Shown one piece after another: positions 4,321-64,000 of a DNA stretch of 64,000 bases; position 1 is the first letter of the stretch; every line of letters begins with the position of its first letter. Both the position numbers and the translations under genes were made by a program. The notes beneath the pieces are model-generated. The model ran no database searches and was not told the origin of the DNA. It saw nothing but the letters and a program-made list of their open reading frames with translations. This DNA is from a virus, in the IMG/VR virus record IMGVR_UViG_3300009551_000004; one strand, 5' to 3'.

Positions 4321-4425
4321 TCCGCCTTTGTCATAGCCGCCTTCAGTGTCTCGCTCCAGGTGACGCCACCGTCCTGGATCATCTGCGCGGCACAGCACGT
4401 CCGTCTTGGTGATGATCTTCGTCAT
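4321..4425 (-). pseudogene. Decayed sixth family A copy (N-terminal stub joined to a frame-shifted C-terminal stub)
   Basis: MTKIITK start is almost identical at nucleotide level to the start of copy 2; a +1 frame reads AQMIQDGGVTWSETLKAAMTKADAE*, like the family C-termini. Confidence 0.45.
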
Positions 4426-4682
4426 CTCTTCCACACCGCTTCCGAAACCCAGAGAAACGCCTCGACAGTGCCGTCCCGCTTGGCGGGATCCACCCGGTAG
4501 CCACGATAGCGGAAACTGCACAGCTTGTCACCGAGGAAAATCGGCCGCCAATCCACAGCGGCGATGTTCTTCAATTCCGTGGCGGATTCGACCGTAATTG
4601 TGCCCAGCTCCACACCCGCTTCATTGCACACATGCACGATAATGTCGGGATTCGGCAGCTTGTACGCCTTACGCGGGGCCAT
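4422..4682 (-). CDS. Hypothetical protein
   Basis: 86-aa ORF with ATG preceded by GGAAGGA. Confidence 0.7.
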   Translation of the reverse strand: MAPRKAYKLPNPDIIVHVCNEAGVELGTITVESATELKNIAAVDWRPIFLGDKLCSFRYRGYRVDPAKRDGTVEAFLWVSEAVWKR

Positions 4683-4836
4683 TGATCACCCATCCTTCCG
4701 CATCCACCACGTCAGGCGATTCGTCGTCTTGCGTCGGGATGATTGGCGGACGGCGCAGCGGGGTGGCCGCACCGGTCGTCACCTGCTCCACTTGCTCGTG
4801 CAGCCACCCCAACATGACGTGCGACAGCGCACTCAT
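4669..4836 (-). CDS. Small hypothetical protein (55 aa)
   Basis: ATG overlaps the upstream TAA (TAATG) and the ORF fills an otherwise empty gap; below the track cutoff. Confidence 0.45.
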   Translation of the reverse strand: MSALSHVMLGWLHEQVEQVTTGAATPLRRPPIIPTQDDESPDVVDAEGWVINGPA

Positions 4837-5471
4837 TAGCCGAACAGCTTCTTCGCCTCGGCCACCTTCGCCTCGGCCTGCTCGGCGCGGGCCTCAGCCG
4901 CCTCGGCGCGGGCCTTCGCCTCGGCGAACTCTCGCTCCAGCTGCGAAACGCTGCCGGCCTGGGCAAGCACAACCCGAAGCGCGTCCATGGCGTCGGACAG
5001 GCCCGTGGCGTTGCCATTCGTGGCCGGCACGACGTCCTGGACAACCGATCGCGGCTTCTCCTGAGCGGGCCCTGACGTCCTGGACGGCTCGGCCTTGACC
5101 GGCTTCGTCGCCGATTCGACCGTCACCTTCCTGACGGCACGCACGGCGCGCCTGGCGTTGGCCGCCTCCTTCTCGGCGTTCCTGGCGCGACGCTCCTCCG
5201 GCGTGATGTGGGCATTGCGGTGCGGGAAGACGCTGCGAGGACTCTCGGCGGCGAACTGGCAATCCGCGCAGCCGTAAGCGAGGGTGTCGTCCGCCAGCAG
5301 CAACGTGCGCACCGACTTCCAGTTGACCGTCATGGGCCTGTAGCCCCGACTGGTCCCCGACACCTGCGTGTCATCCGTGGCCTCCACCGAGACGTGCTTG
5401 CCGTTGTCGAGCTCGACGTATCCGTGCTCGCCCCACGCCTCGCCTGCGAACGGCTGCTTGATCCACCACAT
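4836..5471 (-). CDS. Hypothetical protein with Ala/Glu coiled-coil C-terminus
   Basis: Start at MWWIKQP after GGAAGGAAC; a promoter lies upstream. Confidence 0.75.
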   Translation of the reverse strand: MWWIKQPFAGEAWGEHGYVELDNGKHVSVEATDDTQVSGTSRGYRPMTVNWKSVRTLLLADDTLAYGCADCQFAAESPRSVFPHRNAHITPEERRARNAEKEAANARRAVRAVRKVTVESATKPVKAEPSRTSGPAQEKPRSVVQDVVPATNGNATGLSDAMDALRVVLAQAGSVSQLEREFAEAKARAEAAEARAEQAEAKVAEAKKLFG

Positions 5472-5508
5472 GGTTTGTTCCTTCCGGGTCGGTTCCGTGT
5501 CATCGCTG

Positions 5509-5537
5509 ACACTAGCGAACCATTGATGGTTTGTAAA
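5509..5537 (-). promoter_or_regulatory. SigA-like promoter (TTTACA-17-TAGTGT)
   Basis: Member of the GTGTTTACA-N17/18-TAnnnT family, just downstream of the 5543-5575 hairpin. Confidence 0.6.
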
Positions 5538-5542
5538 CACCA

Positions 5543-5575
5543 GGCCCGTACCTGCCGTTTCCGCAGGTACGGGCC
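5543..5575 (-). terminator. Hairpin terminator
   Basis: 13-bp stem GGCCCGTACCTGC / GCAGGTACGGGCC after the stop of 5582..5776. Confidence 0.6.
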
Positions 5576-5581
5576 ATGGTC

Positions 5582-5776
5582 TTACCTTGACTTGAGTCGA
5601 CGTCGCAACGCTGGCCCGACCGTGTCAAGGTGGTGGTTGATCTCGCCCAGCATGCGCGTCTCCAGCGCGTTCCGCCCTTCGGGAAGTTCATCCCCCAGGG
5701 CGCTCTGGATTGCCTGCGCCTCTTTACGGAAAGCCGCAAGACGTTCGATGAGTTTACCTATGGCATTGACGTCCAT
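5582..5776 (-). CDS. Small hypothetical protein
   Basis: 64-aa ORF in the track, helical-looking. Confidence 0.6.
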   Translation of the reverse strand: MDVNAIGKLIERLAAFRKEAQAIQSALGDELPEGRNALETRMLGEINHHLDTVGPALRRRLKSR

Positions 5777-5780
5777 GGCG

Positions 5781-5906
5781 CTACTGAGTCACCCCCGTCG
5801 ATACCGGAACTGCCGGCGCGGCGTTCGTGTGTGAATGCTTCGTCACCATGATCAGCACCAACACGAACACCAACGCGGCAACAAAAGTCTTCGCTCCTCT
5901 GGTCAT
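5781..5906 (-). CDS. Small membrane protein (41 aa)
   Basis: MTRGAKTFVAALVFVLVLIMV.. has one hydrophobic helix; CGGAAACGGAA leader upstream. Confidence 0.45.
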   Translation of the reverse strand: MTRGAKTFVAALVFVLVLIMVTKHSHTNAAPAVPVSTGVTQ

Positions 5907-5946
5907 TCTTTATCCGACTTCCGTTTCCGTTTCTTGACGATGTATA

Positions 5947-6150
5947 CTACTGCTTCTTTGCCGCGTCGATCTGTGCACTCACCATGCGCATCGTGTTGTC
6001 CAGCTGAAGACAGGCGAGCCTGACTTCATGTACCACACGATGCTGCTCACCGAGGCCGTTGATCGCTTCGACCTGCTGGCTTTCCAGCTGCCCGAAAACA
6101 GACTCCAACTGCTTCAGGACAGCCGTCATGACGCGAATTTCCTCAGTCAT
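5947..6150 (-). CDS. Small hypothetical protein
   Basis: 67-aa ORF in the track. Confidence 0.6.
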   Translation of the reverse strand: MTEEIRVMTAVLKQLESVFGQLESQQVEAINGLGEQHRVVHEVRLACLQLDNTMRMVSAQIDAAKKQ

Positions 6151-6316
6151 ACTGTTCCGCCCATTCCTTTACGGTGACCTTGTGACCACTGGAATCGAAA
6201 TTCGGGTACACGGGCTTGTCGTTGACGTAGTGTATCCAGCCGAACGTCCCGGACCAGTACGCCGGATTGTCGCACGTGTCGCAAAAAGGATCTTTGCGTT
6301 CGATGTCATCCCACAC
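6143..6316 (-). CDS. Small hypothetical protein (57 aa)
   Basis: GTG start inside the last codons of the HAD gene; the C-terminal part reads like real protein (DPFCDTCDNPAYWSG..). Confidence 0.5.
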   Translation of the reverse strand: MWDDIERKDPFCDTCDNPAYWSGTFGWIHYVNDKPVYPNFDSSGHKVTVKEWAEQYD

Positions 6317-6827
6317 TGTACGTTCCGATCTCCCGGTCCCACCACTTCTCGACGTATTCGAGATGGGCCTCCAAAAGGCCCACGTTCTCGTCGGTTCGCA
6401 AAAGCAACGTCCCCGGCCGAATCGACGACCACCGGTGATCCGCTGGCGTGAACTGATCGTCGATCCACACCAGCGGCCGAGCTCCCACCGCTGCCAGCAC
6501 CTCACGCTGCTTCCAGTGCGGCCCCGGCTTGACCCGGAACGGCGGCGTCACCTCGATCACCGGGAGGGCCGGCAAGCCGATCCTCGGCGCGATCTCAGTG
6601 TTGGCGTGCTCGTTCCACGTCGTGGCCCACATCAGATCGGCGCTCAGCGCCTCGGCCAGCTGAACGAGCCTCGCGCCGTGGTCCGGATGCAACCACAAAT
6701 CGAAGTGACTTCCATCAACTGGCACGGCGCGATGCTTGACGAAACCGCGCCGATCGAGCTTGGCTGGATTGCCCAATGGATTAAGCACGCCATCGACATC
6801 CAACGCGACGACGAGACGATCGGTCAT
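6306..6827 (-). CDS. HAD-superfamily phosphatase-like protein
   Basis: VALDVDGVLNP (DxDG motif I) near the N-terminus; WIDD near the C-terminus; ATGA coupling. Confidence 0.65.
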   Translation of the reverse strand: MTDRLVVALDVDGVLNPLGNPAKLDRRGFVKHRAVPVDGSHFDLWLHPDHGARLVQLAEALSADLMWATTWNEHANTEIAPRIGLPALPVIEVTPPFRVKPGPHWKQREVLAAVGARPLVWIDDQFTPADHRWSSIRPGTLLLRTDENVGLLEAHLEYVEKWWDREIGTYSVG

Positions 6828-7021
6828 TTCCTCACCGTCCTTACAGTAATCGCGCAACCGCCATCTCGGAAGCCCATTTCTTTCGTGATCTCGCGCACGG
6901 CGGTCGACAAATGCCTGCCGCAGGTGTAGCGGCCGTCGGTACCGTCCACGTAGAACGTGACAAAAAACGAGGCACCATCGGAACAGGTGAATCCGCTACG
7001 CCCGCGACAAGCTTCTGTCAT
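6824..7021 (-). CDS. Small Cys-containing protein
   Basis: Internal ATG with ATGA overlap to the upstream stop. Confidence 0.55.
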   Translation of the reverse strand: MTEACRGRSGFTCSDGASFFVTFYVDGTDGRYTCGRHLSTAVREITKEMGFRDGGCAITVRTVRK

Positions 7022-7440
7022 GACGTCTCGCCGTCCAGGGCGCGTCGCAGGAACCAGTTGTAGCGTTCGTCGTCGTCGGAATACAGGACATTGGCAATCC
7101 ATGTCGCAAACTCACCAATGGCCATCTCGTGTTGCACGCCGCGTTTGATCGCTTCAGTGAAAATCGCCGTAGCGATGGTCACCGCTTCGGCGCTCAACAG
7201 GCCCTGGGGGTCAACGTCGCCCCGGGCAACCGCGTGCGCCGCCTCGATGCGCAACTCACACCACTCACACGTGACCTTCGAATTCCCGACGTCTCGCCAG
7301 TCGTCCGACACGGGAACAAGCTTGCCGGTGAGATCGCACAGTGCGCGACGAAACGGACTCGCCGGCTTGCCATCGACGACGTGATCCTTGTTCACGTCGC
7401 AATGTGTGATCCCGGTTTTTGGATTGAGCAGGTTTCCCAC
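7018..7440 (-). CDS. Hypothetical protein; N-terminal domain paralogous to 7443..7646
   Basis: GTG start; GNLLNPKTGITHCDVN matches ANLINVHTGVIHADIN of the neighbour. Confidence 0.6.
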   Translation of the reverse strand: MGNLLNPKTGITHCDVNKDHVVDGKPASPFRRALCDLTGKLVPVSDDWRDVGNSKVTCEWCELRIEAAHAVARGDVDPQGLLSAEAVTIATAIFTEAIKRGVQHEMAIGEFATWIANVLYSDDDERYNWFLRRALDGETS

Positions 7441-31091: not shown

Positions 31092-31186
31092 TTGGGAGTG
31101 CGTCGCCTCTGCCAATTGGGCTACCACACCACGAAGCTCGAAGAGGTGAGAGGTGTGGGAAGGGTTCGAACCTCCACTGAAACGCA
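31092..31186 (-). ncRNA. Permuted tRNA-like unit 1 (3' half 31186-31151, 20-nt linker, 5' half 31130-31092; anticodon loop CTCCCAA)
   Basis: The 3' half reads TGCGT-TTCAGT-GGAGG-TTCGAAC-CCTTC-CCACACC-T. The 5' half reads GGTGTGG-TA-GCCC-AATTGGCAG-AGGC-G-ACGCA-CTCCCAA. Confidence 0.55.
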
Positions 31187-31246
31187 CTGACGTTCAGGCT
31201 GAAACTCAAGTTCAGCTTGTGGTCAGGTACTACCTTATCACGTGCG

Positions 31247-53073: not shown

Positions 53074-53148
53074 GCCTTCCTGGCCCAAATGGCAGAGGCC
53101 GTTGATTCAAAATCAACGCAAGTCTGGGTTCGAGTCCCAGGGAGGGCA
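53074..53148 (+). tRNA. tRNA with anticodon CAA (Leu-type anticodon and D arm, but a short variable region)
   Basis: GCCTTCC-TG-GCCC-AAATGGCAG-AGGC-C-GTTGA-TTCAAAA-TCAAC-GCAAGT-CTGGG-TTCGAGT-CCCAG-GGAGGGC-A. Confidence 0.6.
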
Positions 53149-53272
53149 CGTAGTACCGTCATAACCTAGGACATTGACGGAGCACTACCCGCGTACCATA
53201 CGGTCGGCGAAAATACGAAGGTCGCTCCTTCTATCACGGTTTTCGCGGTTCCAGTCCCTGCTGCGCGGTCAG

Positions 53273-53343
53273 GCCGTACAGCGCTGGCTGGGTCGGCGTG
53301 GCTGTAAACCACTCCCGTGGGGGTTCGAATCCCTCGTGCGGCA
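53273..53343 (+). tRNA. tRNA-like, anticodon GTA (Tyr), short variable region and weak D arm
   Basis: Acceptor GCCGTAC / GTGCGGC; anticodon loop CTGTAAA; T arm GGGGG-TTCGAAT-CCCTC. Confidence 0.45.
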
Positions 53344-53355
53344 CAAGAATTACAT

Positions 53356-53429
53356 GCTGGTGTAGCTCAATTGGAAAGAGCACCGCCCTGTCGAGGCGGG
53401 AGTTGCGGGTTCGAGTCCCGTCGCTAGCG
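53356..53429 (+). tRNA. tRNA-Asp (GTC)
   Basis: Canonical cloverleaf with anticodon arm CCGCC-CTGTCGA-GGCGG. Confidence 0.85.
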
Positions 53430-53486
53430 CAAAGTTGGAACTAGTCTTTCCCCGAAAACCAATCTTCCAATGTTCCAACTTTATCC

Positions 53487-53560
53487 GGCCTCGTAGCTCA
53501 GTTTGGGAGAGCATTCGGTTGAAACCCGAAGGGTCGCAGGTTCGAATCCTGCCGGTGCCA
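53487..53560 (+). tRNA. tRNA-Phe (GAA)
   Basis: Anticodon arm TTCGG-TTGAAAC-CCGAA; one acceptor mismatch. Confidence 0.8.
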
Positions 53561-53569
53561 CTTAAGTAC

Positions 53570-53642
53570 GGCTCCATAGCTCAGTCGGTAGAGCTCCCGA
53601 CTTTTAATCGGGAGGTCGCAGGTTCGAACCCTGCTGGGGTCA
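53570..53642 (+). tRNA. tRNA-Lys (TTT)
   Basis: Anticodon arm CCCGA-CTTTTAA-TCGGG with canonical D and T arms. Confidence 0.85.
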
Positions 53643-53645
53643 CAA

Positions 53646-53685
53646 GTTTCTACTGTGCATTCAACCCTGGATGCACAGTAGAAAC
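53646..53685 (+). other. Perfect 15-bp hairpin between tRNAs
   Basis: GTTTCTACTGTGCAT-tcaaccctgg-ATGCACAGTAGAAAC. Confidence 0.8.
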
Positions 53686-53691
53686 GTCCAG

Positions 53692-53765
53692 AGCGGGATG
53701 GCGCAGTTCGGTAGCGCGCCGGGCTCATAACCCGGATGTCATCGGTTCAAATCCGATTCCCGCCA
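53692..53765 (+). tRNA. tRNA-Met (CAT), initiator-like
   Basis: Anticodon arm CCGGG-CTCATAA-CCCGG has three G-C pairs next to the loop; the 1-72 pair is mismatched (A x C). Confidence 0.8.
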
Positions 53766-54032
53766 CGAGAGGGGCAATGCCGGTTCGAATCCGGTTGGTG
53801 AAAGCATCCGGTCACGGCCGGAGGGTGACTAACTGTCGGCTAACAGGCAAGCCACTCCTCGTTAAACAGGCGCACGGCAACGATCCATCGACACAAGGTC
53901 GGTGACACCTGGCGGTGACGGCCGCCGTGTGGCCTGCTACACCATCCGACATCTTGGCCCGAGTGTCGGAGTTTCATTCAAAGTGTGCGCACACAGGACG
54001 CGGCACGTGGCGTCTATCGGGCTGCCATAACT

Positions 54033-57741: not shown

Positions 57742-59235
57742 GTGGCTGACACTCTCCTGGAGATCAAGCTCGATAAACTTCGCCGCCTTCAAGAACTGCA
57801 ACGCCAGAAGCGTGAGATCGAAAGCGGAGATGCGGCTCGCGTCGTATGGCGCGAGTCGGCGAGGCCCGATCAGCTTGAACCCGAAGGCGACTGGTTTGTC
57901 TGGCTGATCCTCGCCGGCCGAGGCTGGGGCAAGACGCGGACCGCCGCTGAGCTCATGGCGGAGAAGGCGCGACGCTACCCCGGCGCGCGTATCGCCCTGG
58001 TGGGCCGGACGTTCGGCGACACCCGCGACACCATGATCGAGGGTGACTCGGGACTGCTGAACGTTTTCAAGCAGTCGGAACTTCGTGGCGGCAAGGTCGA
58101 TGGTGCATGGAACCGATCCCTCGGTGAAGTGTATTTGGAAAACGGCACCAAGTTCTTCTCGTATTCGTCCGAAAAGCCCTGGCAACTTCGTGGTCCTCAG
58201 TTCCATTTTGCCTGGGGAGACGAGTCGTGCTTCTGGGCCGACGCCCATAAAGGCACTGCCGCTGACACGACGTGGTCAAACCTGACGATTGCCACCCGAC
58301 TCCCCCGCAAACCGGGGTGGCCTCTGGACTACCAAAGCCGCATTGTGGTGGCCACGACTCCTCGGCCGGTGGCTCTGCTTAAGGTGTCCGATCCGCAACA
58401 AGTTTCTCCCGGCCTAATGCAGCGTGACAACGTCATCGTCACCCGTGGTCGCACCGTAGACAATCTGGAAAATCTCAACGACAACTACAAGGCGAATGTT
58501 GTTGCCCCTCTGCTGGGCACGCAGCTCGGTCTTCAGGAGCTCGACGGCGAGATTCTGGAGAATCGAGACAACGCCTTGTGGAAGCGTGAATGGATTGAGG
58601 CTGACCGCTACGGCGCTGACCGCGCTAGCGAGCTCGATCTGGTACGCGTTGTCGTGGGTGTCGACCCGTCGGTCACCAGCGGAGAAGCCGCCGACCTGAC
58701 GGGCATCATCGTCTGCGCCGCAGACCGTGAAGGTAATGGTTACGTTCTCGCCGATTACACCATGCGCGGCACGCCGAAGCAGTGCATGCAGAAAGTCAAA
58801 GAGGCGTACGACACCTGGAAGGCAGACCGCGTTGTCGCCGAGGTGAACAACGGCGGCGACTATATCGGCACCGTGTTGCGCACGGTGGACGACAACATGG
58901 CATTTCGAGCTGTGCGTGCCAGTCGAGGTAAGAACACTCGCGCTGAGCCGATCTCGGCTTTGTATGAGCAGCATCGCGTGCATCACGTCGGCATGTTTCC
59001 TCAACTCGAAGACGAAATGTGCACCTGGGCACCGGGTGATCCGGAATCGCCGGACCGCATGGACGCCATGGTCTGGGCAATGTACGACCTGAAAGACCTG
59101 ATCGGCGGCTCCTGGCTGGACGCCTACAGCGTCGTTCGATGCCACAAGTGCGAACGACCCTTTACGAAGACATTCGGCGGCAAGCCGCGCGAAAAGTGCC
59201 CGCACTGCAATACGGCTGTTGAGGAGGCCGCGTGA
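57742..59235 (+). CDS. terL: Terminase large subunit
   Basis: 497 aa; Walker A-like AGRGWGKTRTAAE; typical size and position upstream of the portal. Confidence 0.85.
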   Translation: MADTLLEIKLDKLRRLQELQRQKREIESGDAARVVWRESARPDQLEPEGDWFVWLILAGRGWGKTRTAAELMAEKARRYPGARIALVGRTFGDTRDTMIEGDSGLLNVFKQSELRGGKVDGAWNRSLGEVYLENGTKFFSYSSEKPWQLRGPQFHFAWGDESCFWADAHKGTAADTTWSNLTIATRLPRKPGWPLDYQSRIVVATTPRPVALLKVSDPQQVSPGLMQRDNVIVTRGRTVDNLENLNDNYKANVVAPLLGTQLGLQELDGEILENRDNALWKREWIEADRYGADRASELDLVRVVVGVDPSVTSGEAADLTGIIVCAADREGNGYVLADYTMRGTPKQCMQKVKEAYDTWKADRVVAEVNNGGDYIGTVLRTVDDNMAFRAVRASRGKNTRAEPISALYEQHRVHHVGMFPQLEDEMCTWAPGDPESPDRMDAMVWAMYDLKDLIGGSWLDAYSVVRCHKCERPFTKTFGGKPREKCPHCNTAVEEAA

Positions 59236-59617: not shown

Positions 59618-60871
59618 GTGGTCAACGTCACCATCGTCACCGCCGGCACCTCCGGACCTCGCGGCAATGGGTGGCTGTCCGGCACAGGCGCGCCGGCTAA
59701 TTCGGTCGGTTTTAACGGCGATTTCTACCTCGACACCACAAATCCGTCGGTGTTTTACGGCCCTAAAGCAAACGGCGCATGGCCAGCGCCGACGCAGTTT
59801 ACGAGCCAGAAGAACAACTTCACTGCGACGCGTGACCCGGCGACAACGGACGACGGCACGCAAGGGTATTCGATCGGGTCGATCTGGATCAATACCTCAA
59901 CCTCGGCATATTTCGTCGCCGAAAACGTGACGACAAATGCCGCAGTGTGGTATCAGAACTATCAGCTGGGCACCACGTCGGGTAGTGCCGCTGCCGGCAA
60001 TGACAGTCGAATCACCGGCGCACTCCAGGCGTCAAACAACCTCAGCGATGTCACGAGCGTATCGGGCTCTCGTAACCATCTCGGTTTAGGCGGCGCGGCC
60101 GTGCTCAACGTCGGCACCACGACGGGCACTGTGGCTGCCGGTGACGACTCCCGAATCGTCAATGCGCTGCAAAACACGTTGCTCACCACCAAGGGCGACC
60201 TGATTGTTGCCACGAGTGGCGGTGGTGCCACCCGTCTTGGCGTCGGTAGCAACACTCAGATTCTGACGGTTGATTCGACGCAGGCCACGGGCCTGAAGTG
60301 GGCGGCCCCCGCCGCGAGCGGCATGGATCAGATTTTCCCGATGAACCAGGGCTACGGCCTTCTGACCGTCAGCGACAACCCGTTGTTCTTCCAGAACATT
60401 TCCGGCCTGGCCAGCGGGACCGTATTCGGTGCCCGATGCTGGGTGCCGGCGAATACGGCTCTGGGACACCTCGTCGCCGCTAACCACAGTGCGGGGACGT
60501 ACAACACTTCGGCAGTCCCTAACCAGCTGGGCATTTACGACGACAGCGGCACGCAGCTTCAGACCACGGCTAACGACAACACGCTGTGGACCACTGTCGG
60601 TTGGGCCGGCGGTGCTATCACGACCGTTCCGGCACAGGCTAGCGGTCGATTCGTGTACATCCTGTACATCCTGGGCGGCTTCACCGGCGTTCAGGTGCCC
60701 TATGCATTGGGCGCAAACGACACCAATGCCCCCTACATGGGCCTTGGTGTTACTAATGCCGGCAATCGTCGTGCATTTTACCTGAACGGGCAGTCGGCGC
60801 TCCCGGGCTCGTTCAATCCGACGAGTGTTGGCACTAATACCGGTTTCGTGCCGCTCGTGGGGGCGTACTAG
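59618..60871 (+). CDS. Tail-fibre-like / minor-tail-like Gly/Thr/Asn-rich protein
   Basis: GTG after TAGGAGG; GPRGNGW and GDFYLDTT...YGPK motifs common in phage fibre proteins. Confidence 0.6.
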   Translation: MVNVTIVTAGTSGPRGNGWLSGTGAPANSVGFNGDFYLDTTNPSVFYGPKANGAWPAPTQFTSQKNNFTATRDPATTDDGTQGYSIGSIWINTSTSAYFVAENVTTNAAVWYQNYQLGTTSGSAAAGNDSRITGALQASNNLSDVTSVSGSRNHLGLGGAAVLNVGTTTGTVAAGDDSRIVNALQNTLLTTKGDLIVATSGGGATRLGVGSNTQILTVDSTQATGLKWAAPAASGMDQIFPMNQGYGLLTVSDNPLFFQNISGLASGTVFGARCWVPANTALGHLVAANHSAGTYNTSAVPNQLGIYDDSGTQLQTTANDNTLWTTVGWAGGAITTVPAQASGRFVYILYILGGFTGVQVPYALGANDTNAPYMGLGVTNAGNRRAFYLNGQSALPGSFNPTSVGTNTGFVPLVGAY

Positions 60872-61203
60872 TGACAATGTCCACTGGAGAACGGGCTCCG
60901 TTCGACCAGGCAGCTCGCTCCGTCATTTCCGGCACTCAACGGATCTTTGGTGGCTCTCCTCGGCTTCCGTTGACGCAGGAAGAGAAGAAAGAAGCGCAGC
61001 AAGTCGCCAAAAGTGGTGGCGTCTGTCTGTTCTGCGGCGGCATCCACGTCGGCGCGTCCACGCCAGCGTGCCCCCGCTTGGCGAGTGGGAAGCTCAACGG
61101 TGATGGCACTGTCGTTGAATTCACGTATTGGCAGGAGTGGAACACCGACCGCGTCATTTTCCCCGAGGAAATTGAAGACGACAAGGAGTCCGGTGACGAG
61201 TGA
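60871..61203 (+). CDS. Hypothetical protein
   Basis: 110-aa ORF in the track. Confidence 0.65.
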   Translation: MTMSTGERAPFDQAARSVISGTQRIFGGSPRLPLTQEEKKEAQQVAKSGGVCLFCGGIHVGASTPACPRLASGKLNGDGTVVEFTYWQEWNTDRVIFPEEIEDDKESGDE

Positions 61204-61402
61204 CCAGGAACGCGCTGAGATTATGTTGCGCTTGCGCCTGATCAATGATGCGCAAGAGCGTGGCGCGACCTGGGCGGGAATCGCCAGTGCGCTGGGGTAC
61301 TCCGACGGAAAAGCTGCAAAGAATGACGTGAAAAAGACCGCGCGACGGCTGGAAAAGTTACTGCGCACGGAGGCGGAGAAGGTGACCGATGGCCACGAAT
61401 AA
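61193..61402 (+). CDS. Small HTH-like protein
   Basis: GTG after AAGGAG; ATWAGIASALGYSDGKAAKNDVKK. Confidence 0.55.
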   Translation: MTSDQERAEIMLRLRLINDAQERGATWAGIASALGYSDGKAAKNDVKKTARRLEKLLRTEAEKVTDGHE

Positions 61403-64000
61403 GTCTATCCTCCGCGCGACCAAGTACTCCCCCACTTCCGCGCCGCAAGGTGGCGTCAGCACCGGTCGATTCTCGCCGCTGGCAATGCAATTGGCGGATC
61501 AACACGGCTACGCCAATGCGTATTCAGGCTTCCTGCCGCGTCCGGCGTCCGACTTCACGCAAGGCGCATTCGGCCCGTTCAGCCCCATCCTGCCCGTCCC
61601 GGTTGACGAGCCGGGCCCGGATGGTCGCGCCGAACCGCGTCGCGAAGAATACCGCGTCGGCTGGAACCTTCCTGTCGGCACGCCCGGTAGCGAAGGTCTG
61701 AAGCTGGCCAGCTTCAGCACCCTTAAGACGCTGGCCGACCTGTACTCCGTGGCGCGGGCGTGTATTCAGCTGCGCAAGTCGGAGATTCGCGGTCTGGAGT
61801 GGGACATCATGCCCACCCAGGAAGCGGCCAAGGCGAACCGTGGCGACAAGAAGTGGTTCAAGGATTTCGGCGAGCGCCGAGCCAAGGCCAAGAAGTTCTT
61901 TCGGCGTCCAGACCCGGACTACTACAGCTGGAACACCTTCCTGGATGCATTTCTTGAGGAAGTCTTCGTTTTTGACGCCCTCTCCCTCTACCTGCGCCCC
62001 AAGCGCGGCAAGGGAATGCGTAAGGGCGTTCTCGGCAGTGATCTGGACAGCTTGAATCTGATCAACGGTCCGACGATTCGGCCGCTGTATGACATGCACG
62101 GTGGTTACCCGGCTCCGCCGGCTCCGGCCTACCAGCAGTACCTCTACGGCGTGCCGCGTTCCGACTTCATCAAGATGTTGACCGAAATGGACATCGAAGA
62201 GTCGGGCATGCGGTCGAGTCAACTTGGCGCATTTCGCGGCGACCAGTTGCTCTACATTCCCATGGTGCCGCGTCGCTGGACGCCGTACGGCTTCCCGCCC
62301 ATCGAGCGGGCGATGATTCCGGTCCTGTCCGGTCTCCAGAAGCAGGGTTGGCAGCTCGATTATTTCCGCGAGGGCACCGTCCCTTCGGTGTACATGTCTC
62401 CCGGCGACGAGAACATGACGCCGAATCAGATTCGCGAGCTTCAGGACGCCCTGAACGCTTTCGCGGGCGATCCGGCGTGGCACCACAAGATCATTGTTTT
62501 GCCGCCCGGCACGCGCGTCGAGCCTCAGCGTGATGTGCAGCTGGCCGACCAGTTCGACGAAATCGTCATGACGCAGGTCTGCATGGCCTTCGACATCATG
62601 CCGATGGAGCTGGGCATCGCGCCCAAGGTGTCGACGTCGATGTCGCCTGGCGCGAGCAATCAGATGGCCAAGATGGCGCAGAGCATCGGCGAACGCAAGG
62701 CGACGAAGCCGACGTTGATGTTCATCGCGGACATCATGAACGGCATTCTTCAGACCACGTGCGGTCAAGACGACATGCAATTCGTTTTCGAAGGCCTGGA
62801 AGCCGAAGAGGATCAGGTTCTTCTGACCGAATTGCTGGTCAATCAGATCAAGTACGGCCTGCGCAGCGTTGACGAGGCGCGGGACGAGCTGAGCCTTCAG
62901 CCGTGGGGTATGCCGGAAACGAGCGGCCCCGTGTATATGGCCCCGACGGGTCCGATTCCGTTCGGTGCGGTCACGCCCGTCCCTGGGCAGCCCACACCGG
63001 CCGCCCAGCCTGCCCTGCCGGGCGTGCAGCCGGCGACGCCCGTGGTGGCAGGTGGAAGTGCCAGCGGTGCTTCCAGTCAGCCCGTGGCGGCCCCTCAGCA
63101 CGTCGAGACGCCAGGCCACGCAGCCGCGCAGGGGCATGCCGGCACGCCGGCCGCCAAGCCCGCCGCGCGACCTGGCGCGGCGGGCCAGACGGTCAAACCT
63201 CCAAGAGGTCCCGCTTCCTCATCGGTGAATAGTCGCCCCAAGGTAGACGACCCGGGGTTGCTTAAAGCAGCCGCCAATGAGCTCGAAGCCCTGGGACGGC
63301 ACGTCAAAAAGGGTCGCCAGGTCTCCAGCTGGGTACCGCGCGCATTAGCGCCCGATGCTCTTGCGCGCATTAGCCAGCACATGGCCGAAGGTCTGGAGAT
63401 CGACGAAGCGATCAAGGTAGTCAAGGCGACACGGCGAATCGTCTCCCTCAATGGGCAGGAATCATGGATGGATGCCGCCGTTCCGCTCAATGCGGCAGGC
63501 GGCGGTGGCCGTTCACCCGTCAGACATCTTGGTGACGGCACCGAAGTGCCTGGCGGCGTGCCGGCGAACACGGCTGGTGGCGAACCTCCACGGTGGGCTC
63601 CGTCCCGGCCGCTCAATGGATACATGGGCGGCTTCTACGACGGCTCAGATCGGTCTCAAGCGCATCACCCCTCCAGCGGTCGTGACGACCGAATTCCCGT
63701 AGGGGTAGATCATCAAACCGACGTGAACTCACGTCCCGGAAGTTACCCCGACCCGCCGCGTGGGCAATGGCCGAACGGCGGCCACGGAACGGGACAGGCT
63801 GGAGCGAATGCCGTACCGGGCGACGTGAACGACCGAGATCGGTCACCCGGTGTCGGTGATATGGCGGCCAAGGCGGCTGCCCCTGTCGCTGCCGGTTTGG
63901 CGGTTCGAGCGGCCGACACGGGCCGCGTGCTGATGCTTCAGCGGGCAATGACCGATGACGACCCCGCCGCTGGCGCGTGGGAATTCCCGGGCGGCTGCTT
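61389..64000 (+). CDS. Portal protein fused to a long C-terminal extension ending in a Nudix-like domain (partial, runs off the window)
   Basis: I traced the frame codon by codon from ATG 61389 to 64000 and found no stop. The portal-like body is followed by a Pro/Ala linker (about 62950-63230). The last residues read GLAVRAADTGRVLMLQRAMTDDDPAAGAWEFPGG. Confidence 0.75.
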   Translation, partial: MATNKSILRATKYSPTSAPQGGVSTGRFSPLAMQLADQHGYANAYSGFLPRPASDFTQGAFGPFSPILPVPVDEPGPDGRAEPRREEYRVGWNLPVGTPGSEGLKLASFSTLKTLADLYSVARACIQLRKSEIRGLEWDIMPTQEAAKANRGDKKWFKDFGERRAKAKKFFRRPDPDYYSWNTFLDAFLEEVFVFDALSLYLRPKRGKGMRKGVLGSDLDSLNLINGPTIRPLYDMHGGYPAPPAPAYQQYLYGVPRSDFIKMLTEMDIEESGMRSSQLGAFRGDQLLYIPMVPRRWTPYGFPPIERAMIPVLSGLQKQGWQLDYFREGTVPSVYMSPGDENMTPNQIRELQDALNAFAGDPAWHHKIIVLPPGTRVEPQRDVQLADQFDEIVMTQVCMAFDIMPMELGIAPKVSTSMSPGASNQMAKMAQSIGERKATKPTLMFIADIMNGILQTTCGQDDMQFVFEGLEAEEDQVLLTELLVNQIKYGLRSVDEARDELSLQPWGMPETSGPVYMAPTGPIPFGAVTPVPGQPTPAAQPALPGVQPATPVVAGGSASGASSQPVAAPQHVETPGHAAAQGHAGTPAAKPAARPGAAGQTVKPPRGPASSSVNSRPKVDDPGLLKAAANELEALGRHVKKGRQVSSWVPRALAPDALARISQHMAEGLEIDEAIKVVKATRRIVSLNGQESWMDAAVPLNAAGGGGRSPVRHLGDGTEVPGGVPANTAGGEPPRWAPSRPLNGYMGGFYDGSDRSQAHHPSSGRDDRIPVGVDHQTDVNSRPGSYPDPPRGQWPNGGHGTGQAGANAVPGDVNDRDRSPGVGDMAAKAAAPVAAGLAVRAADTGRVLMLQRAMTDDDPAAGAWEFPGGC

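Follow-up and report, generated by a model that had tools for sequence, protein, structure and literature searches.

The gene described here lies close downstream of the large terminase gene (TerL) in the viral record IMGVR_UViG_3300009551_000004, of which a stretch of 64,000 nt was analysed. This whole stretch is referred to as the window; all nucleotide positions are those of the window, and amino acids (aa) are numbered from the ATG at position 61389. The phage is uncultured and its genome is ~105 kb in size; the gene encodes its portal protein, and the same polypeptide carries a Nudix domain followed by a domain with the predicted fold of the superfamily of ParB/sulfiredoxin (ParB/Srx) proteins. 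A sequence-only reading of the window had traced the frame from ATG 61389 to position 64000 without a stop, and translation bears this out: there are 870 codons and zero in-frame stops on the + strand. The other two + frames over the same interval contain 22 and 19 stops, and thus the open frame is no by-product of the 61% G+C content. By our own arithmetic, the chance that the ~325-codon extension would remain open at ~1 stop per 40 codons is ~4e-4. The N-terminal sequence, MAT(N/T)K, is also found in homologs P0002 and P0003. The portal assignment was made with the Pfam model Phage_portal PF04860 (aa 121-500; score 43.1 bits, gathering cutoff 39.1) and with PHROG 2662 (E 9.8e-44, aa 80-547). 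The coordinates of the features are presented in Table 1.

The rest of the gene was found on the IMG/VR contig IMGVR_UViG_3300005578_000069 (L004), which matches positions 60357-64000 of the window with 0 mismatches in 3,644 nt and carries the frame on to a stop 736 nt beyond the window. The complete open reading frame (ORF) is 1,115 aa in length from ATG 61389. A second protein of 1,083 aa (P0001), from a 104,759-bp JGI contig, starts at Met33 of the window ORF, is 100% identical to it over the 838 overlapping residues, and holds both PF04860 and PF00293 by Pfam. The segments that the sequence-only reading had listed, namely the portal body, the Pro/Ala linker, a helical segment, the Gly/Pro-rich stretch, and the Nudix lead-in AAGLAVRAADTGRVLMLQRAMTDDDPAAGAWEFPGG, were all found to be present. 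Neither a stop nor a frameshift separates the portal and Nudix parts in L004, and the overlap is identical.

The Nudix box GX5EX7REUXEEXGU had been expected to lie past the edge of the window, and it was found in the same frame in L004. The box GCLEPGEDARNAAVREWQEETGI (aa 869-891) is an exact match to the pattern and stands in the context ...AWEFPG-GCLEPGEDARNAAVREWQEETGI-VLP...; its first two residues, G869 and C870, are encoded by the final pair of complete codons in the window (63993-63998). With the full protein, the Pfam model NUDIX PF00293 scores 69.9 bits against a cutoff of 21.1 (E 2.7e-19, profile positions 4-118 of 134). The part of the domain within the window scores 14.6 bits, under the same cutoff, as is to be expected of a truncated domain. 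PHROG 1198, annotated as 'MutT/NUDIX hydrolase', was matched at 3.1e-17. Outside the box pattern, W832, P835, A849, and P862 are near-invariant among 76 sequences. In 76% of the members there is a conserved tyrosine 16 residues beyond the box; this is reminiscent of the ApnA hydrolases, but no weight is placed on the resemblance. Profile positions 526-574 of the portal family phrog_15528 match the region of the Nudix box (E 4.9e-05), and this sequence similarity suggests that some members of that family also bear a Nudix domain.

The sequence-only reading had the ORF ending in the Nudix domain. The Nudix domain was confirmed, but the protein does not end there: ~160 residues follow, including a domain of ~130 aa that lies entirely beyond the window. 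No Pfam model, ParBc included, matches this tail even at E <= 10. An AlphaFold2 model of the tail, made with a 43-sequence alignment, has a pLDDT (predicted local distance difference test score) of 86.5 with a core above 95. When this model was compared with the PDB using Foldseek, the top matches were all of the ParB/Srx fold (PadC, Noc, Srx, KorB, SerK, SbnI, and ParB), with E values of 2.9e-3 to 5e-2, probabilities of 0.96-1.00, and template modelling (TM) scores of 0.3-0.5 over ~60-100 residues. The same search against BFVD returned phage 'ParB/Sulfiredoxin' proteins (E 4e-4), and PHROG 1033, annotated as 'ParB-like', matches 47 residues of the tail at 6e-9. The motif D-G-H-H-R is invariant in 43 diverse members, and in a weak PDB sequence match it aligns with the DGHHR of the serine kinase SerK (5x0e). 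It lies after the central strand, in the place of the active-site arginine motif (GxxR or DGxHR) of ParB/Srx proteins. Because the tail is recognized by fold and motif, and not by a curated Pfam model, it is, as judged from its predicted structure, a divergent member of the ParB/Srx superfamily. No relative of the tail was found by tblastn in 50,697 deposited phage genomes at E <= 1e-4.

The ratios of nonsynonymous to synonymous substitution rates (dN/dS) were determined by codon comparison with L005 (85% identity), L012, and L010. The values range from 0.03 to 0.31 across all modules. They are 0.03-0.09 in the portal and 0.07-0.13 in the Nudix domain; the tail gave 0.11-0.21, the Gly/Pro-rich region 0.07-0.18, and the linkers 0.19-0.31. 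Since dN/dS is low in every module, the entire polypeptide is translated and under purifying selection.

Between the portal body and the Nudix domain there is a three-helix module with the motif ELEAL.RH.[RK]KGR..S.W.P[RK]H, in which six residues (E, R, H, G, R, and W) are invariant. AlphaFold2 predicts three helices with a core pLDDT of 81-91. The module has no match in Pfam (E <= 10) or among the PHROGs, and no significant Foldseek match in BFVD, where the best E value is 0.29. The shortest family members (690-691 aa) stop just after it. The stretch that joins this module to the distal domains is predicted to be disordered and includes the motif AGGGGR; that AGGGGR might be a processing or docking site is speculation. 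The dN/dS of the Gly/Pro-rich region (0.07-0.18) is below that of the Pro/Ala linker (0.20-0.31), and its short conserved motifs are AGGGGR, GGHGTGQ, and, in relatives, PHD..GIQ. It may be a docking or processing region and not a passive spacer.

The distribution of the modules was surveyed in the 120 best of more than 600 homologs; these 120 are 48-100% identical to the window protein, and the counts are included in Table 1. The portal and Nudix domains occur in one ORF in ~72 of the 120, and the Nudix box is present in 72. The assemblies behind these homologs (JGI, Logan, ENA, and NCBI) are independent of one another. The order of the distal domains is Nudix followed by ParB/Srx in the closest relatives (P0001-P0014) and ParB/Srx followed by Nudix in the next clade (P0015-P0041); P0010 is without the Nudix domain. 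MuF (PF04233) was found, by precomputed Pfam only, in 19 of the 120 homologs, all among the more distant ones, and no match to PF04233 was detected in P0001, P0002, or P0003 at E <= 0.1. Other homologs contain a 2H phosphoesterase (PF13563), an ADP-ribosyltransferase (PF03496), a zeta toxin (PF06414) with AAA_33 (PF13671), or an intein. Because the shortest members end after the three-helix module, we regard the portal, linker, and three-helix module as a constant core and the distal part as exchangeable cargo.

Several insertions were noted in individual homologs. The intein of P0098 (PF14528/PF13403) is inserted in the portal body itself. Two close relatives have additional inserts rich in Cys and His. 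In P0002 (the protein of L005), the Gly/Pro region is followed, ahead of the Nudix domain, by ~55 aa that resemble a zinc ribbon (..ECGTCVMF..C..CDRWE..), and P0003 has a CPCG...H...H insert within the N-terminal part of its Nudix domain. The window protein has neither of these last two elements.

Table 1. Features of the fusion gene and its surroundings in the window, with the number of homologs (of the 120 surveyed) in which each module was found
Feature	Position (aa)	Strand	Homologs	Basis or remark
Portal-Nudix-ParB/Srx fusion gene	61389..64000	+		first 870 of 1,115 codons within the window
Shine-Dalgarno-like GGAGAAGG	61375..61382	+		read from sequence; 6 nt before ATG 61389
Portal body	61626..63029 (aa 80-547)	+	120	PF04860, PHROG 2662
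Pro/Ala-rich linker	63030..63248 (~aa 548-620)	+	39	composition; fastest-evolving long segment
Three-helix module	63249..63434 (aa 621-682)	+	119	
Gly/Pro-rich region	63480..63869 (aa 698-827)	+	68	short conserved motifs, e.g. GGHGTGQ
AGGGGR motif	63495..63512 (aa 703-708)	+		conserved in most of 39 aligned homologs; predicted disordered
Nudix domain, N-terminal part	63885..64000 (aa 833-870 of 833-951)	+	72	box begins at 63993 and runs past the window
ParB/Srx-fold tail domain	beyond the window (~aa 986-1115)		102	predicted fold; DGHHR motif
TerL	57742..59235	+		Terminase_6N + 6C
ORF of 417 aa	59618..60871	+		weak PHROG matches, best 5e-10
ORF of 129 aa	61013..61402	+		weak PHROG match, 9e-6
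Five tRNA genes (Leu-CAA, Asp-GTC, Phe-GAA, Lys-TTT, Met-CAT)	53074..53766	+		~4 kb upstream of TerL
tRNA-Ser(TGA)	31150..31239	-		separate from the other five

The fusion gene lies beside the large terminase gene in the head-morphogenesis module. TerL is located 2.1 kb upstream of the portal gene on the same strand, and the same order is found in L003. The window TerL is 497 aa in length and intein-free; the TerL of L003 (5270-8050) is 926 aa in length and contains a LAGLIDADG/Hom_end intein. There are two ORFs between TerL and the portal gene. The first has weak PHROG matches to 'tail collar fiber' or to families of unknown function, and the second overlaps the start of the portal gene by 14 nt and has a weak match to PHROG 'RNase E' that is probably compositional. 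A foreign origin of the portal extension was considered from a dip in its G+C content at third codon positions (GC3) and was rejected, since the values of 0.60-0.78 bracket that of TerL (0.71).

Downstream of the fusion, no prohead protease, scaffold, or major capsid protein was recognized within ~10 kb in L003, L004, and L010 using Pfam, PHROGs, and PDB sequence searches. The only products recognized there are a giant protein with a double zinc ribbon, PHROG 13692 (function unknown), a glycosyltransferase, and a sugar epimerase. The gene directly after the fusion (L004 ~4401-7349, L003 13504-16587, and L010 13541-16441) is conserved and encodes ~970-1030 aa, with a central double zinc ribbon (DZR, E ~1e-8) as its sole recognizable feature; it occupies the place expected for a MuF, protease, or scaffold gene. 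The glycosyltransferase (PHROG 7162, 6e-62) and the NAD-dependent sugar epimerase (PF01370, 2e-35) are encoded 8-9 kb downstream of the portal gene (L010 21063-22960; L003 22834-23477), among presumed structural genes, and may function in the modification of virion or cell-wall glycans.

A megablast search with the gene against 50,697 phage records gave no match, and the phage thus has no close cultured relatives. No relative was found in a scan of 185,579 species-representative genomes, so that there is neither a prophage copy nor a host assignment from this source. Every match lies on a contig that is viral or metagenomic and no longer than 115 kb. That the host is an actinobacterium is no more than a guess, suggested by the G+C content of 61% and by phages of Arthrobacter and Streptomyces, in which the nearest relatives of the portal and of the Nudix domain occur.

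We propose that the distal part of the protein is a portal-anchored, capsid-internal polyvalent cargo that would be released and delivered with the DNA, and we place the probability of this proposal at roughly 55%. The C-terminal crown of solved portals points into the capsid. Because of this orientation, the fusion would bring as many as 12 copies of the Nudix-ParB/Srx cargo to the portal vertex within the head, and no separate packaging signal would be needed. The cargo would most likely be freed by cleavage in the flexible, fast-evolving linkers, exit together with the DNA, and act at the very start of infection, before phage transcription. The Nudix domain would hydrolyse nucleoside-diphosphate-X compounds; examples are ADP-ribose (ADPR) or molecules derived from NAD, (d)NTPs, and dinucleoside polyphosphates. 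The ParB/Srx module would be a nucleoside triphosphate (NTP)-dependent enzyme that acts on DNA or nucleotides. The logic of this scheme is that of the 'polyvalent, head-packaged effector' described by Iyer et al. (2017 and 2022).

Several observations weigh against this proposal. No cleavage site was found, nor any maturation protease in the scanned neighbourhoods, and no prohead protease was found among the scanned nearby ORFs upstream in the window; as long as it is not cut loose, an enzyme tethered to the portal cannot enter the cytoplasm of the host. The PDB sequence neighbours of the Nudix domain, which cover only ~60 residues around the box, point to NTP pyrophosphohydrolases of the MutT/NudG type and not to ADPR enzymes. 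A literature search found neither virion proteomics nor injection assays for any family member. Finally, the three-helix module and the ParB/Srx domain are the best conserved of the distal parts and could function in assembly rather than in an attack on the host.

This last point leads to a structural explanation, which we regard as unlikely. According to this explanation, the extension is a lineage-specific replacement or elaboration of a MuF or portal-crown function that stays on the portal inside the capsid and is not injected; the ParB/Srx domain would arrange or hold the DNA end as an NTP-dependent DNA binder, or nucleotides would be processed at the packaging vertex. The three-helix module (119/120) and the ParB/Srx domain (102/120) are far more conserved than the Nudix domain, as expected of structural parts, and the Gly/Pro-rich region is constrained. 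MuF occurs in the same extension of 19 homologs and in the Arthrobacter phages Mufasa8 and Sonali, which provides a link to a protein of head assembly and the control of DNA ejection, and the failure to find either a protease or a cleavage site is also in keeping with an extension that is never released. However, the members of 690-691 aa have nothing past the three-helix module and P0010 is without the Nudix domain; hence the distal modules are dispensable for a functional portal. The ADP-ribosyltransferase, zeta-toxin, and 2H domains that are swapped into the extension are typical of conflict effectors and not of structural proteins, and the catalytic residues of the Nudix domain are strictly kept.

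It is still less probable that the fusion merely ensures the co-expression of a late cytoplasmic enzyme, with the domains active in the infected cell as long as the protein is unassembled, or once it has been cleaved ahead of assembly, and with incorporation into the head being incidental. The activities suggested for such an enzyme are the clearing of ADP-ribose or NAD breakdown products or a late sanitizing of the nucleotide pool. Nudix domains are soluble hydrolases of a housekeeping type, the nearest solved relatives of this one are of the MutT/NudG type, and the long disordered linkers would free the domains to act in trans. Nevertheless, in all four of the cultured carriers this Nudix clade is found on one of three different head proteins or in the head module, which argues for a need for location in the head and not just for late expression. 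Portal monomers are made in low copy number and would be a poor vehicle for a bulk metabolic enzyme. The remaining explanation, that a frameshift introduced in sequencing or assembly, or else a chimeric contig, has joined a portal gene to a separate downstream Nudix gene, could draw on the end of the window inside the gene, which makes the fusion unverifiable from the window alone, and on the fall in GC3 from ~0.8 to 0.60-0.69 over the extension, but it is effectively refuted by the base-for-base agreement of two records (the window and L004), by the single ORF in ~72 of the homologs from independent assemblies, by the same fusion in two cultured phages with Sanger- or Illumina-finished genomes, by dN/dS values well under 1 throughout, linkers included, and by an extension GC3 in the same range as that of TerL.

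If the cargo is packaged and ejected, each virion would carry two nucleotide-directed enzymes, at ~12 copies apiece, that are in place ahead of all phage gene expression, which is the interval when defences based on NAD, ADPR, and cyclic nucleotides fire. A more specific version of the polyvalent-cargo proposal is possible but doubtful: in the ~105-115 kb lineage the portal, and not MuF, would carry a recombining effector array (Nudix, 2H, ADP-ribosyltransferase, and zeta-kinase) on a constant platform made of the three-helix ELEAL.RH.KGR module and the DGHHR ParB/Srx domain, and the ParB/Srx-Nudix pair would act jointly on a nucleotide-based host signal or in NTP-dependent DNA processing at genome entry. 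The presence of different cassettes on the same portal scaffold in close relatives is a natural experiment that could be used to map each cargo to the defence that it counters, and the scaffold could serve the engineering of portal-tethered payloads. The packaging-and-injection hypothesis is directly testable with the cultured relatives Mufasa8 and Sonali. Because the concept has been published and these cultured examples exist, the value of the locus is that it adds one more well-documented member and draws attention to the uncharacterised ParB/Srx variant and the conserved three-helix module.

A similar arrangement is found in Mufasa8 (gp3, 1000 aa) and Sonali (gp3, 995 aa). As in the window, a single ORF directly after TerL encodes a PF04860 portal, a linker, and a PF00293 Nudix domain; the layout in these phages is portal (86-414), NUDIX (542-651), and MuF (884-982). 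Their Nudix domains form one clade with that of the window protein (37% identity over 187 aa, E 2e-27, by BLASTP; 43-49% by tblastn), and the signature DTGR.LM.QR...DDPAAG.WEFPGG is common to the window protein and the Arthrobacter phages, whereas the portal bodies are only 27% identical. The Arthrobacter phage proteins end in MuF (PF04233) and are without the DGHHR ParB/Srx domain, whereas the window protein is without MuF. The gap between portal and Nudix is ~130 residues in the Arthrobacter phages and ~285 residues here, with the three-helix module included, and the genomes are ~60 kb and ~105-115 kb, respectively. The names given to this protein are inconsistent: gp3 of Mufasa8 is a 'portal protein' in GenBank and a 'MutT/NUDIX hydrolase' in RefSeq, and gp3 of Sonali is a 'portal and MuF-like fusion protein' (records NC_049478.1 / MN586027.1 and NC_048152.1 / MK411746.1). 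None of these names for gene 3 captures the portal-Nudix-MuF architecture.

Using the Nudix domain as the query, a tblastn search of the 50,697 phage records (E <= 1e-8) recovered only Gilgamesh, Sonali, Mufasa8, and Pam4, and thus no T4-like phage, although no direct profile comparison with NudE was made. The 1013-aa gp13 of Pseudanabaena phage Pam4, a 'capsid maturation protease' encoded directly after the portal, has a Nudix domain of the same clade (39%, E 2e-18), as does the 641-aa gp52 of Streptomyces phage Gilgamesh, encoded directly upstream of the major capsid protein (51%, E 3e-28). In these two phages, with cyanobacterial and Streptomyces hosts, the Nudix domain is part of a head-module protein other than the portal, and no ParB/Srx tail was detected in either by tblastn. 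In all four deposited phages with this Nudix clade, the domain is therefore encoded in the head module: on the portal in Sonali and Mufasa8, on the protease in Pam4, and before the major capsid gene in Gilgamesh.

The anchor of the protein may also be compared with that of the MuF polymorphic toxins. These toxins are reported to have a conserved head-associated N-terminal domain and variable C-terminal enzymatic or toxic domains, and it has reportedly been proposed that they are packaged in the capsid and ejected with the DNA. Jamet et al. (2017, PMC5576092) describe such polymorphic toxins, anchored by an N-terminal MuF domain, in temperate phages, whereas the window protein is anchored by the portal itself and has no PF04233. 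They are encoded by temperate phages and prophages, whereas no prophage copy of the window family was found among the 185,579 species representatives. In addition, no immunity gene is evident beside the window protein, and its cargo is of a hydrolase type and not an overt toxin.

A further precedent is that of the polyvalent proteins. In 2017, Iyer, Burroughs, Anand, de Souza and Aravind (PMC5512222) defined polyvalent head-packaged proteins and, in the passages cited here, proposed packaging and injection for enzymes fused to Portal or MuF; their examples include portal- or MuF-fused 2H and InPase and head-packaged ParB/Srx ('DdrB-like') domains. Section 3.5.2 of Iyer et al. (2022, PMC9503650) describes fusions of Portal, MuF, and the head protease with Nudix domains in phages, proposes packaging and injection for these, and places the portal-fused Nudix in the T4 NudE-like (ADPR/FAD/Ap3A) clade. 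The polyvalent proteins of these passages and the window protein share unrelated enzymatic domains on a head anchor (Portal/MuF) in the late module of a portal-terminase phage; here the Nudix and ParB/Srx domains, at least two unrelated domains of the effector type, are found with the portal in one ORF near TerL. The ParB/Srx domain of the window protein has the DGHHR motif, as do SerK, SbnI, and the DndB-type members. The three-helix module of the window family is not described in the cited passages of PMC5512222 and PMC9503650. This conserved module and the divergent DGHHR ParB/Srx domain, for which tblastn detected no relative among cultured phages, look undescribed. The portal-Nudix fusion and the idea of its packaging and injection have already been published, the fusion is present in cultured phages, and the locus described here is a confirmed further example.

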